The notes beneath the pieces are model-generated. The model ran no database searches, was not told the origin of the DNA, and saw only the letters and a list, made by a program, of their open reading frames with translations. 64,000 nt of DNA from the NCBI RefSeq assembly GCF_056712565.1, contig NZ_CM160072.1; one strand, written 5' to 3'. Below are positions 560-6,573 of this stretch, in pieces. A program made the translations under genes and the position numbers. Positions within the stretch are counted from its first letter, which is position 1, and the number at the start of each line of letters is the position of its first letter.

Positions 560-970
560 ATGAAGTGGCAACAACGTGTTCGTGTCGCAACTGGCCTAAG
601 TTGCTGGCAGATTATGTTGCATTTACTGGTAGTGGCGCTGCTGGTGGTGGGCTGGATGAGTAAAACTCTGGTTCACGTCGGCGTAGGATTATGCGCACTG
701 TATTGTGTCACGGTAGTGATGATGCTGGTGTTTCAGCGCCACCCCGAGCAACGCTGGCGTGAGGTGGCAGACGTGCTGGAAGAGCTGACCACGACCTGGT
801 ATTTTGGCGCAGCGCTGATTGTTCTGTGGCTGTTGTCCCGCGTACTGGAAAACAACTTTGTGCTGGCGATTGCAGGGCTGGCAATCCTTGCCGGCCCGGC
901 GGTAGTGTCTTTGCTGGCGAAAGATAAGAAGTTACATCACCTTACGTCTAAACATCGCGTACGCCGCTGA
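560..970 (+). CDS. ybhQ: Inner membrane protein YbhQ (136 aa)
   Basis: [23 protein letters not shown]..., hydrophobic, length and sequence match YbhQ; 3' end overlaps convergent ybhR. Confidence 0.9.
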
Positions 971-2038
971 CCCTGTCGTGGCCGTTATCACCAGTAGCGG
1001 CCACAAACTATTCCACACAATATCCAGACTCGCATCCTTCAAATAAATCTGCTTGGTAATGTCCGTAAAGTGGCGAATAGGGTTAATCCACGTCAGATTT
1101 TGCAGCCACACTGGCATGTTTTCCACCGGCGAAACGTAACCGGAAAGGAGAATGGCGGGCATCATAAAGACAAACACGCCGATAAACGCCTGCTGTTGTG
1201 TTGAACAGAGTGATGAAATCAACAGACCGAATCCCACCAGCGATAAACCGTAAATCACCATCGTGAAGTAGAACAGCGCCAGCGATCCGGCGAAGGGGAT
1301 TTGATACGCCCAGATACCAATCGCCAGCACAATGGTGGCCTGGAAGGTGGCGACAATTAATGCCGGTACGGCTTTGCCGATGAATATCTGCCAGGTGGTG
1401 AGGGGCGAAACCAGCAACTGATCGAGCGTACCTTGTTCACGTTCACGGGCGACGGAAAGTGAAGTGACTATCATTACGCCGATAGTGGTGATCATGGCGA
1501 TCAGCGACGGCACCACAAACCATTTGTAGTCGAGATTCGGGTTATACCAGTTGCGTACCACCAGCTCGCTGTTGTTGGGTTTCGGTTTTCCTTCCAGCAG
1601 CTCCTGCTGATAATTTTTGACGATCTGTTGCAGGTAGTTGGCGGCAATTTGCGCACTGTTGGAGTTACGCCCGTCGAGGATCAACTGCAACGGCGCGGTC
1701 TGGAAGGTATCCAGTTTGCGCGAGAAGTCAGCCGGGAAACGCACCAGTAGTAACGCCTTTTGTGTGTCGATGGTCGGGCGGATCTCCTGCGGGCTTTTCA
1801 GCAGCAGCACATGGGTAAAGGCGCTGGCGCGGGCAAAACGTTGAGTAAGTTCTACCGAGTGCTCGCCGTTATCTTCATCGTAGATGGCGATGGTGGCGTT
1901 GGTCACTTCCAGCGTGGCGGCGAACGGGAACAGGATCACCTGAATTAGCACGGGTAAAATCAGAATTGCGCGGGTTTGCGGTTCGCGCAGCAGCGACTGC
2001 AACTCTTTGCGGATTAACGTCCATAAGCGATGAAACAT
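932..2038 (-). CDS. ybhR: ABC-2 family exporter permease YbhR (368 aa)
   Basis: 368-aa ORF with ABC-2 permease character; position downstream of ybhS as in the cecR-ybhGFSR operon. Confidence 0.92.
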
Positions 2039-2048
2039 GCTCTTCTCC

Positions 2049-3182: not shown

Positions 3183-4911
3183 TGCTATGCTCCTTATCCC
3201 AGTCGTGGATCAACTGAATAAAGGCTTGCTCCATAGTGGGATCGGGTTGTTCATCGTTGGCCGACTGCGCTTTCAAATCGTCCGGTGTGCCGCTGGCGAT
3301 TAATTTCCCGCGGTACACCAAGCCGATGCGGTCGCAATATTCCGCTTCATCCATAAAGTGGGTGGTGACCATCACCGTGACGCCTTTCTCTACCATACTG
3401 TTGATATGTAGCCAAAATTCACGGCGGGTGAGGGGATCAACGCCGGACGTCGGTTCGTCGAGAAACAGAATGTCCGGTTCATGCATCAGCGAACAGGCCA
3501 GCGCCAGCCGCTGTTTAAAACCTAATGGCAGTTCATCGGTCGCGTGGGAGGCGATACTTTTCAGGCCGAACGCCTCGCTCATACGGGAGATTTTTTCGTT
3601 CTGCGCCCGACCGCGTAAGCCATACACACCAGAGAAAAAGCGTAAATTCTGTTCGACCGTCAGGTTGCCGTAGAGCGAAAATTTTTGCGCCATATAGCCG
3701 AGATGCTGGCGCGCTTTACCGGAACTCTCTTTCAGATCCATGCCCAGCACCAGGGCCTGACCAGAGGTCGGTACCAGCAAACCGCACATCATCTTAAAGG
3801 TGGTCGATTTACCCGCGCCGTTTGGTCCGAGCAAACCAAAAATCTCCCCGCGTTTAACGGCAAAGTTGACGTGATCGGTGGCGGCAAAATCACCAAATTT
3901 CTTGGTTAGTTCCTTCGCTTCGATCACCGTCTCGCCGGGTGTGCCTTCTACCGTATGTAATATTGCGCCCAGCGGCGATTCCGAGGTTCCGGCACCGCCC
4001 AGCAAATCAATAAACGCATCTTCAAAACGCGGCGTAGTTTCGTTGATGTCGATTTCCGGCATCCCGTCGGCATGGCGAATATCGTCTGGCGTGGTCTCTT
4101 TTTTGAGGATCAGACGTACCGATTTCCCCTGAATCATGCCGTCGCTGACCTGCGGCAGTTTCAATGCCCGTTGCAACAGTTTGCGGTTGCCCTCGTGCGG
4201 GCTGGTCATCAGAAAGCTGCGTCCGGCCATAGTTTGAGTCAGGGCCGTCGGTTCTCCCTGATACAGCAGCTCGCCTTCGTTCATCAGTAACACGTCACGG
4301 CACTGCTCGGCTTCGTCGAGATACGAGGTACTCCAGAGGATTAACATCCCTTCGCCCGCCAGCTCATGCACCATCTGCCACAGTTCGCGCCGTGAGATAG
4401 GGTCAACGCCGACGCCGGGTTCATCGAGCAGCAACACTTTCGGTTCGCCTACCAGGGTACAGGCCAGGCCGAGTTTTTGTTTCATCCCACCGGAGAGCTT
4501 GCCCGCCAGGCGTCCGGTAAACGGGCCAAGAGATGTAAACTCCAGCAGGCGAGCAAAAGTCTGCTTCCGTGCCTCGCCGGTGACGCTGCGCAAATCCGCG
4601 TACAGATTGAGATTTTCCATCACCGTCAGATCTTCATACAGGCCGAATTTCTGCGGCATATAGCCGAGCACGGCGTGCAGCGCAGCGTCGTTTTTGATCG
4701 GATCAAAGCCAATCACCGTGGCACTGCCGCTGTCGGGTTTCAGTAATCCCGCCAGCATCCGCATCAGCGTGGTTTTGCCCGCACCGTCCGGCCCAACCAG
4801 CCCCGTCACATAACCGGCGTGAATGGTGCAGTCGAGCGGTGCGACGGCGGGCTTGTCCATGCCCGGAAAGCGTTTTTCCAGGCCGTTCAGCGTGATAACG
4901 GCATCATTCAT
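3175..4911 (-). CDS. ybhF: ABC transporter ATPase YbhF with two fused nucleotide-binding domains (578 aa)
   Basis: Two Walker A motifs ([18 protein letters not shown]) and two LSGG signature motifs in one ORF; start trimmed to [10 protein letters not shown] (ORF track extends 5 codons upstream). Confidence 0.9.
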
Positions 4912-5902
4912 GTCCTGCCTCGTCACCGAATTGCACCGTTACCGGCATTCCCTGGCGTAACGCATCATCGGCGTCGGTCACCACAATACGCAGGCGATAG
5001 ACGAGGTCGGTACGCAGATCCGGTGTTTCGACGGTTTTCGGGGTAAATTCAGCAGTCGGCGAAACGAAACCAATCTGCCCGTGATACGGTTTGTTCGGAC
5101 GACCATCGGTATAAAGCAGCACTTTGCGCCCCGGCTGGGCCTGGTCAAGATTACGTTCATCAACATAGGCGCGTACCCACACCGGACGCGTCAGCGAGAC
5201 GGTAAATACCGTGCCACCTTCATTAAGCACCGTGCCGGGCTCTACCGCGCGCGTTAACAGCGTGCCATCAGACGGTGCTATCAACGTTGAGTCCTGCAAA
5301 TTCAGCTCCGCCTGCGCCAGTTGCGCCTGCGCTTGTTCGAGGCTGGCTTTCGCCTGGGCGATGTCCTGTTCGCGGTTACCGGAACGGTACTGACGCAATT
5401 TATCCTGCGCTGATTTCAGCGTGGCCTGCGCCTGGTCGCGCGAGGAGCGGGCATTTTCCAGGTCATTTGCCGAAATGGTGCGGCTTTTCCACAGTCCTTG
5501 CTGGCGGTTATAGAAGTTCTGCGCATAGTCATAGGCAGCTTGCGCCTGTTTCACCGCTGCGGCGGCCTGAGCGATTTCTTCATCGCGATACCCGGCAAGC
5601 ATCAGGTCATACTGCGCCTGAGCCACCGAAACGCCCGCTTTCGCCTGCATCAGGGCAATCTCATACGGCTTGTGATCCAGTTCGCCCAGCACCTGGCCCG
5701 CTTTGATCGCATCACCTTCGTCCACCGCCAGCGACTCAACGCGCCCCCCAACACGGAAACTAAGATTCACCGTACGAATATCCACGTTGCCATACAGCGT
5801 CAGGCCGTTATCCTGGCGGCTTTGATACCACCAGTAGCCTCCGGCAACCACGGCGGCAAGTACTACTACCGCCAGTCCGATCACGACAGGTTTTTTCATC
5901 AC
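4904..5902 (-). CDS. ybhG: HlyD-family membrane fusion protein YbhG (332 aa)
   Basis: N-terminal membrane anchor followed by a long coiled-coil region (AQAQYD..., [16 protein letters not shown]); overlaps ybhF start. Confidence 0.92.
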
Positions 5903-6573
5903 TACAAACTCCTTTGCGATAATCCTTGCAAAATCAGGTCAATATGACAGGTCACCGTCTGGTTGATCAGTTCGGTCTTTTCTTCATCGAACGCGGTCCA
6001 GCCGGTACGTAACAGAATAGTTTCTTTGCCAAGACGAAACGCCAGAATCTCACCAATCAACGCATGGGTATGAAGGATCATGCGGGTATCGCTAGCGTCG
6101 CAGCCGGTCCAGGCGGCAATCAGGCGTGTAAGGTGACTGTGTAGCGGACTAATCACCTGTTCGTGCACCAGGTGGTAGGCTGCCGTGGGAGAGAGCTGCT
6201 CACGGGAGATAAATTTGCTGAGGTTGACGGTGTCATCCTGGGTGAGCAGCTTAATCATGTTTCTGCAGGCGCGAAGGATCAGTTCACGGATGGCTGCCCG
6301 ATCCGGCTGTGGTTGTGCGAACAAACGTTCGGCTTCTTCGGCGTGTGGACGGAACTGCTCGCCAATAAAATCAGCAATCCACTGGGCGCAGGCGAGGTAC
6401 AAATCTTCTTTCGAACCGAAGTAGTAGGTGATGGCTGCGATATTCTGCCCGGCCTGGGCGGCTATCTCGCGGGTGGTGGCGTTCATTCCATATTCACCAA
6501 ACTGTGCCAGTGCCGCAGCAATCAGCTGTTTTTTCGCCTGTTCACCCTTGATTGTCATGGCAGGATTATTCAT
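5902..6573 (-). CDS. cecR: TetR-family transcriptional regulator CecR/YbiH (223 aa)
   Basis: TetR-type HTH near N-terminus ([28 protein letters not shown]); start trimmed to [10 protein letters not shown]; 1-nt overlap with ybhG start. Confidence 0.88.

Follow-up and report, generated by a model that had tools for sequence, protein, structure and literature searches.

We have examined a 64,000-nucleotide (nt) stretch of contig NZ_CM160072.1 (NCBI RefSeq assembly GCF_056712565.1), referred to here as the window, and conclude that the five minus-strand genes lying between positions 932 and 6573 are the known Escherichia coli cecR-ybhGFSR operon. Our joint reading, to which we assign a probability of about 0.9, combines control by the TetR-family regulator CecR, closely packed gene junctions, a YbhGFSR-TolC pump and a single degenerate ATP site in the ATPase of that pump. 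The operon, its regulator, the drug phenotypes and the TolC link have all been published already, and gene packing of this kind is typical of bacterial operons. With the operon already described, the locus carries little weight as a discovery.

The six-frame list of open reading frames (ORFs) holds all five genes on one strand at the coordinates collected in Table 1, which bear out the positions given in the initial annotation. Positions 500–7000 of the window are 100% identical over 6501 nt to the chromosome of E. coli ATCC 11775, whose annotation names the genes cecR, hlyD (= ybhG), ybhF, ybhS and ybhR, flanked by ybhQ and rhlE; the symbol hlyD, assigned by the Prokaryotic Genome Annotation Pipeline (PGAP), is misleading. 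Of 5426 complete E. coli genomes, 5423 contain the region, and most match at 95–99% identity. The K-12 annotation has the same layout, and cecR-ybhGFSR of K-12 (b0796–b0792) is the same locus, alike in gene order, lengths and junction sequences; the difference lies in annotation only (the ybhG start), and a few amino-acid differences from K-12 are expected given the 95–99% identity. Published work regards cecR-ybhGFSR as one operon under CecR repression (Yamanaka et al. 2016, as summarised in PMC12998191; PMC5934670).

Domain searches and existing annotation also support the roles initially proposed for the gene products, namely a TetR regulator, a membrane fusion protein (MFP), a double ATPase and two ABC-2 permeases. 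CecR matches the Pfam families TetR_N (PF00440, 2.4e-14) and CecR_C (PF09209, 3.9e-35) and scores 417.7 bits against a cutoff of 365 for its NCBIfam equivalog. YbhG matches HlyD_D23, HlyD_3 and Biotin_lipoyl_2 in Pfam and reaches 602 bits for the NCBIfam equivalog PRK03598 (cutoff 393). Two ABC_tran stretches are found by Pfam in YbhF, which scores 450 bits for the DrrA subfamily (cutoff 312), and both permeases match ABC2_membrane_3 (PF12698; 3.3e-39 for YbhS and 3.8e-51 for YbhR).

All cross-locus counts reported here are based on 80 Enterobacterales loci with YbhF orthologs (71–99% identity), fetched from genomes, in which the five genes were placed by tblastn. The order cecR-ybhG-ybhF-ybhS-ybhR on one strand is found in 71 of the 80. 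Judging from its sequence relatives, the YbhF family is widespread, with at least 596 confirmed loci among the matches listed.

Table 1. Features of the cecR-ybhGFSR locus in the window; the last column gives, for each junction, the number of related loci scored, followed by those with an overlap; a gap of 0–20 nt; a gap of 21–60 nt; and a gap of >60 nt
Feature	Position	Strand	Description	Related loci
cecR (ybiH)	5902–6573	minus	TetR-family repressor, 223 amino acids (aa); ATG at 6573, TAG stop 5902–5904	
ybhG	4904–5899	minus	Membrane fusion (periplasmic adaptor) protein, 331 aa (ATG 5899); 332 aa if GTG 5902	
ybhF	3175–4911	minus	Cytoplasmic ATPase with two fused nucleotide-binding domains, 578 aa	
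ybhS	2049–3182	minus	ABC-2 permease 1, 377 aa	
ybhR	932–2038	minus	ABC-2 permease 2, 368 aa	
cecR/ybhG junction	5899–5914	minus	AAGGAG (5909–5914), TAG (5902–5904), then GTG 5902 or ATG 5899; sequence reads TAGTGATG	74: 41; 21; 7; 5
ybhG/ybhF junction	4904–4921	minus	GAGG (4918–4921), 6 nt, then ATGAATGA; 8-nt overlap 4904–4911	79: 58; 20; 1; 0
ybhF/ybhS junction	3175–3195	minus	AAGGAG (3190–3195), 7 nt, then ATGAGTAA; 8-nt overlap 3175–3182	78: 72; 1; 2; 3
ybhS/ybhR junction	2036–2051	minus	TAG-ggagaagagc-ATG; GGAG (2045–2048), 6 nt, ATG 2038; 10-nt gap 2039–2048	77: 1; 54; 7; 15
Candidate CecR operator	6586–6609		Perfect palindrome TCTTAATCAA-N4-TTGATTAAGA, 13 nt upstream of the cecR ATG; inverted-repeat search, 10-nt arms, 100% complementary	
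Putative promoter	6609–6635	minus	Promoter-like TGGACA (6630–6635), 15-nt spacer, CATAAT (6609–6614); abuts the candidate operator	
Second conserved block of the cecR-rhlE spacer	6671–6700	minus	CAGTTTTTGTGA-N6-CGCATAAATT	
ybhQ	560–970	plus	Convergent with ybhR; 3′ overlap of 39 nt (932–970)	

Pump architecture and ATP sites

Both nucleotide-binding domains (NBDs) of YbhF carry a canonical Walker A, Q-loop and Walker B in an alignment of NBD1, NBD2 and RbbA (the ATPase of a paralogous operon discussed below), and these motifs are invariant in the 80 orthologs. Two canonical composite ATP sites, with LSGGQ and an H-loop His in both NBDs, are not what YbhF contains: Ser replaces His in the H-loop of NBD1 (WSTSYLDE, residues 193–200), and the signature of NBD2 reads LPLGF instead of LSGGQ (residues 461–468). 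Both the H-loop loss and the LPLGF signature are invariant in all 80 orthologs and are shared with RbbA. Because the two defects contribute to the same composite site (NBD1 Walker A/B, NBD1 H-loop and NBD2 signature), that site is, by its motifs, degenerate and the other canonical. With one degenerate site, ATP hydrolysis would probably be asymmetric, as in other heterodimeric ABC exporters. The nearest solved relatives of the YbhF NBDs are ABCA proteins (ABCA1/3/4/7).

YbhS and YbhR are paralogs (27% identity, E=7e-45), and hydropathy gives each a first transmembrane (TM) helix, a hydrophilic stretch of ~130 aa and a C-terminal TM bundle; the hydrophilic domain between TM1 and TM2 is presumably periplasmic. 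Their nearest solved relatives are ABCH/ABCG-type transmembrane domains (TMDs), they also match DrrB and ABC-2, and neither gives a match to FtsX or MacB_PCD even at E<=10. On these domain matches, we place YbhFSR as an ABC-2/type V system and not a MacB-type one. Membership of the MacB/FtsX (type VII) class was considered and rejected on the missing FtsX/MacB_PCD match and on the location of the NBDs on a separate polypeptide. One review places YbhFSR in the MacB/FtsX family and takes ybhF for the adaptor gene (PMC8277102); our domain searches contradict this, with YbhF the ATPase, YbhG the adaptor and the permeases ABC-2. In the proposed pump, the ABC-2 permeases YbhS and YbhR (type V fold) would pair as a heterodimer, with one YbhF and its two fused NBDs beneath them.

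MacAB-TolC shares with this pump an ABC-driven inner-membrane transporter, a related TM-anchored MFP (MacA) and a TolC encoded elsewhere. However, MacB has the FtsX/type VII fold and forms a homodimer whose subunits each fuse an NBD to a TMD, whereas YbhS and YbhR are separate from the fused double NBD. With the DrrAB, ABCA and ABCG systems, the pump has in common a YbhF scoring above the DrrA cutoff, NBDs nearest to those of ABCA, and permeases matching DrrB, ABC-2 and ABCH-type TMDs. DrrAB is encoded by single NBD and single permease genes, forms homodimers and has no MFP; in contrast, the NBDs of YbhGFSR are fused, its two different permeases each carry an inserted hydrophilic domain on the putative periplasmic side, and it has an MFP and a link to TolC.

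The adaptor YbhG has a single N-terminal TM helix (residues 5–23, by hydropathy), and its nearest PDB relatives are EmrA and MacA. No outer-membrane protein gene is among the annotated genes of the 64-kb window, and for EmrAB, TolC is likewise encoded elsewhere. AcrAB and MacAB share an unlinked TolC (PMC7190983). Like known TolC partners, YbhG is thermally destabilised and raised in abundance in a tolC deletion strain, and it has been affinity-purified with TolC (PMC6056769). These published results partly answer the question of TolC dependence posed with the initial annotation. We suggest that the TM-anchored, EmrA/MacA-like YbhG would bridge the pump to TolC.

A double ATPase, two distinct permeases and an MFP with no outer-membrane component encoded locally had been considered unusual for E. 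coli exporters, a view that proves mostly mistaken. K-12 carries a paralogous operon, yhiI-rbbA-yhhJ, with an MFP, two NBDs and two ABC-2 permease domains, and with junction overlaps of 4 and 1 nt; therefore, this architecture occurs twice in E. coli. Additionally, an unlinked TolC is the rule for TolC-dependent pumps of E. coli. YhiI is 29% identical to YbhG, the RbbA NBDs are 40–42% identical to YbhF (NBD1 again lacks the H-loop His and NBD2 again carries the LPLG signature), the permease domain at the C terminus of RbbA is 32% identical to YbhS, and YhhJ is 24% identical to YbhR (E=4e-31). The paralogous operon differs in that RbbA, a single 911-aa protein, combines the double ATPase with the first permease; in K-12, the operon also has no TetR gene immediately upstream.

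CecR and its candidate operator

The perfect palindrome lying just upstream of cecR is our candidate for the CecR operator (Table 1). Its core, TAATCAA-N4-TTGATTA, occurs once exactly, at the equivalent position, in 43 of the 80 related loci, and in an alignment of 13 genera the palindrome is the best-conserved block of the cecR-rhlE spacer. Within the window, the core is matched exactly only at this site, and a search allowing <=2 mismatches returned 2 matches against 0.21 expected. The TGGACA and CATAAT hexamers are kept across the 13 aligned genera, and the spacer between them varies. Palindrome and hexamers fit a TetR-type operator overlapping the transcription start, and this predicted layout agrees with the published CecR target.

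That target was reported, by systematic evolution of ligands by exponential enrichment (SELEX), to be the cecR-rhlE spacer, with CecR described as a single-target regulator (PMC12998191, PMC5934670). The first of these also states that CecR binds cephalosporins and chloramphenicol, that the operon responds to both, and that CecR acts as an activator of the divergent rhlE (PMC12998191). We suggest that a TetR-family dimer of CecR would most likely bind the putative 10-4-10 operator at its own promoter, repressing the whole transcript, and that binding of a cephalosporin or chloramphenicol, as published, would release it from DNA. The tetR/tetA and acrR/acrAB systems share a TetR-family repressor beside the pump genes, a palindromic operator at the promoter (here a candidate one) and release by drug. 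They differ in that cecR is the first gene of the pump transcript and not divergent from the pump.

A consensus scan, which needed a 16–18-nt spacer and also missed the likely cecR promoter, gave no promoter-like sites on the minus strand inside the operon, and an Rfam scan of positions 1–12000 gave no match at gathering thresholds. Antisense plus-strand ORFs inside the operon, which are without annotation or homology support, were set aside as by-products of GC-rich coding sequence. The second conserved block of the cecR-rhlE spacer recurs in most of the 13 genera aligned; it could be part of the rhlE promoter or of a further site of regulation.

Six related loci from Escherichia sp. ESNIH1, Dickeya and Pectobacterium (L030, L071, L072 and L075–L077 in our numbering) have ybhGFSR, and no same-strand upstream cecR was detected in these six at E<=1e-10. 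Therefore, the regulator is not always linked to the pump genes.

Gene junctions and translation

At all four junctions, the start codon overlaps the upstream stop or lies a few nt from it, with a Shine-Dalgarno (SD) sequence inside the upstream ORF or at its end. Each of the four downstream starts has its own SD at 6–9 nt (AAGGAG, GAGG, AAGGAG and GGAG, respectively). The initial annotation gave overlaps of 1, 8 and 8 nt and a gap of 10 nt; both 8-nt overlaps and the 10-nt gap are exact, but the 1-nt overlap of cecR and ybhG needs a GTG start that is not conserved. That overlap is obtained with GTG 5902 (K-12 annotation), and a 2-nt gap with ATG 5899 (PGAP, ATCC 11775). In every related genus, ybhG has an ATG-AAA start with AAGGAG before it, and the codon preceding the ATG is usually no start (for example, GTC, CTC or AAA). 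ATG 5899 is therefore the better-supported start on this comparison, which favours the 2-nt gap for the window and makes the GTG of E. coli a probable coincidence specific to its lineage. The K-12 reference start of ybhG is probably 3 nt too far upstream.

GTG 5902 was judged less likely than ATG 5899, and two further start codons were rejected. GTG 4926 for ybhF (longest ORF 3175–4926) is GTA in E. albertii and is without a suitably placed SD. ATG 6585 for cecR (ORF 5902–6585) is not conserved, whereas in 12 genera the gene begins at the position matching ATG 6573.

For the junction distances in related loci (Table 1), starts were picked automatically, taking in each case the start codon closest to where the E. 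coli N-terminus aligned. The cecR/ybhG junction, overlapping or with a gap of <=20 nt in 62 of 74 loci, is weaker in this respect than ybhG/ybhF and ybhF/ybhS. At ybhF/ybhS, AAGGAGCA is nearly invariant across relatives, and some of the six loci scored as non-overlapping are artefacts of the automatic start picking (L055, for example, has AAGGAG...ATGA at the stop). The length of the overlaps drifts among genera (1, 4, 8, 11, 14 and 17 nt), so the conserved feature is the interlocking of stop and start and not a specific overlap. Because overlaps are kept in 58 of 79 related loci at ybhG/ybhF and in 72 of 78 at ybhF/ybhS, translational coupling at these two junctions is plausible.

The initial suggestion of coupling is not supported at ybhS/ybhR: gaps of >60 nt occur there in 15 of 77 related loci, and ybhR keeps its own SD. 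These long gaps, seen in several Enterobacteriaceae genera, consist of 88–394 nt of GC-rich palindromic units resembling repetitive extragenic palindromic and bacterial interspersed mosaic elements (REP/BIME-like; L013, L017, L020, L021, L025, L028–L031, L033 and L039). The insert in L021 has about six tandem REP-like copies, one insert with about six tandem copies measures 394 nt, and predicted folding energies of the inserts reach −192 kcal/mol. In the insert-bearing loci, ybhR retains its own AGGA/GGAG ahead of the ATG, so coupling is unnecessary there. The E. coli window has no REP-like insert at ybhS/ybhR.

We propose that a polycistronic mRNA would be read through these closely packed junctions, each downstream start being served by its own SD in the end of the preceding gene. 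The interlocked start and stop codons at ybhG/ybhF and ybhF/ybhS would favour coupled synthesis of the adaptor, the ATPase and the first permease, and ybhR, which starts 10 nt past ybhS from its own GGAG, probably initiates independently. The packing of cecR-ybhGFSR is real but ordinary. Elsewhere in the window, operon junctions overlap by 1, 14, 1, 4, 4, 1 and 4 nt (1 nt at ybjJ/ybjI, moeA/moeB and clsB/ybhN; 4 nt at glnP/glnQ, ybiR/mntR and ybhP/clsB; 14 nt at iaaA/gsiA) or leave gaps of 2, 5, 7, 17 and 19 nt.

Alternative readings, substrates and genomic neighbourhood

Several points weigh against the joint reading. We infer the subunit stoichiometry and the degenerate-site mechanism, given that PDB relative searches of the subunits found no solved structure of any YbhGFSR subunit. 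The consensus scan missed the cecR promoter with its 15-nt spacer, which makes its failure to find internal promoters a weak result, and five weak terminator-like hairpins lie on the minus strand inside the coding sequence of the operon. Additionally, the SD of every downstream gene is good, and independent initiation would suffice; the drift in overlap length between genera implies that no particular overlap is required; and at ybhS/ybhR, inserts as long as 394 nt are tolerated. Published drug phenotypes are modest, and the Na+/H+ antiport is disputed.

The translational points would also suit a somewhat unlikely alternative, in which the tight junctions are genome compaction only and every gene relies on its own SD for independent translation, without functional coupling. 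Besides the SD placement at all four downstream starts, the unconserved overlap lengths and the 88–394-nt inserts, this explanation can draw on the short gaps that replace the ybhG/ybhF overlap in some genera (for example, 7–15 nt in Yersinia, Photorhabdus and Serratia) and on the similar overlaps and short gaps that are common in unrelated operons of the window. However, the persistence of overlaps at ybhF/ybhS and ybhG/ybhF, in 72 and 58 loci, respectively, despite divergence suggests selection for start/stop interlocking. We retain coupling at these two junctions as part of the joint reading.

The ybhF and ybhG mutants are reported to be sensitive to cefoperazone and chloramphenicol (PMC12998191, PMC7190983), and efflux of tetracyclines, ethidium bromide and Hoechst has been linked to YbhFSR (PMC7190983, PMC8277102). 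Na+/H+ antiport was claimed (PMC7190983) and later called in need of further investigation (PMC8277102). Both cecR and ybhR have also been reported as hits in experimental evolution.

We consider it unlikely that YbhGFSR is not primarily a drug pump, with a native role in exporting an endogenous envelope lipid or metabolite and with antibiotic phenotypes as side activities. Such a role would suit the modest drug phenotypes, the resemblance of the ABC-2 permeases and NBDs to ABCA lipid transporters and to the DrrA, NodI and LptB groups, and the core status of the operon in E. coli (5423 of 5426 genomes). In Enterobacteriaceae, the operon also adjoins ybhQ-ybhP-clsB-ybhN, which includes genes for cardiolipin synthase B and a membrane protein like lysyl-phosphatidylglycerol synthase. 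However, the binding of cephalosporins and chloramphenicol by CecR and the response of the operon, as reported (PMC12998191), argue against it, and the high ABCA scores arise partly from two NBDs matching two NBDs. Loss of the clsB/ybhP linkage in Yersinia, Serratia, Photorhabdus, Xenorhabdus and Providencia makes that linkage look like inherited synteny. A functional tie to ybhQ-ybhP-clsB-ybhN was considered; with the linkage gone outside Enterobacteriaceae and Dickeya, it is left only as a low-probability alternative.

Very improbable, finally, is that YbhFSR works alone in the inner membrane as a drug or ion transporter (Na+(Li+)/H+ antiport), with YbhG separate and no tripartite TolC pump: Feng et al. 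reported the antiport (PMC7190983) and the knockouts of Yamanaka et al. reportedly differ between ybhF (cefoperazone) and ybhG (chloramphenicol) (PMC12998191, PMC7190983), but the antiport claim has been flagged as needing confirmation (PMC8277102), ybhG is interlocked with ybhF in most Enterobacterales, the paralogous operon also opens with an MFP, and YbhG is destabilised in the tolC deletion and co-purifies with TolC (PMC6056769).

Around the operon, rhlE remains divergent from cecR through Yersinia, Serratia, Photorhabdus, Xenorhabdus, Providencia and Edwardsiella (L054–L083), loci in which the ybhQ-ybhP-clsB neighbourhood downstream of ybhR is lost, as against L004–L053. The 39-nt overlap of ybhQ and ybhR is the same in 37 of the 46 related loci having ybhQ, and the promoter/terminator scan reported no intrinsic terminator-like site for the ybhR transcript below position 932 on the minus strand. 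Between rhlE and dinG, at about 8396–8593, there is only an N-terminally truncated NADAR-domain pseudogene; in K-12, we take this position to hold ybiA.

Our reading of YbhGFSR as a TolC-linked pump leaves room for a broader and distinctly unlikely proposal. Under it, YbhGFSR-TolC and YhiI-RbbA-YhhJ would form a structurally distinct class of tripartite ABC pumps with an endogenous envelope lipid or metabolite as substrate, marked by a type V heterodimeric permease, hydrophilic domains that are presumably periplasmic, a fused double ATPase with a permanently degenerate site and an EmrA-like adaptor. The occasional placing of this class in the MacB family would apparently be a mistake.

The conserved degenerate ATP site, together with the lack of a solved structure, makes YbhGFSR or RbbA a reasonable structural target. 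Assignment to the ABC-2/type V rather than the MacB class, as predicted from the domain matches, matters to anyone modelling tripartite ABC pumps.

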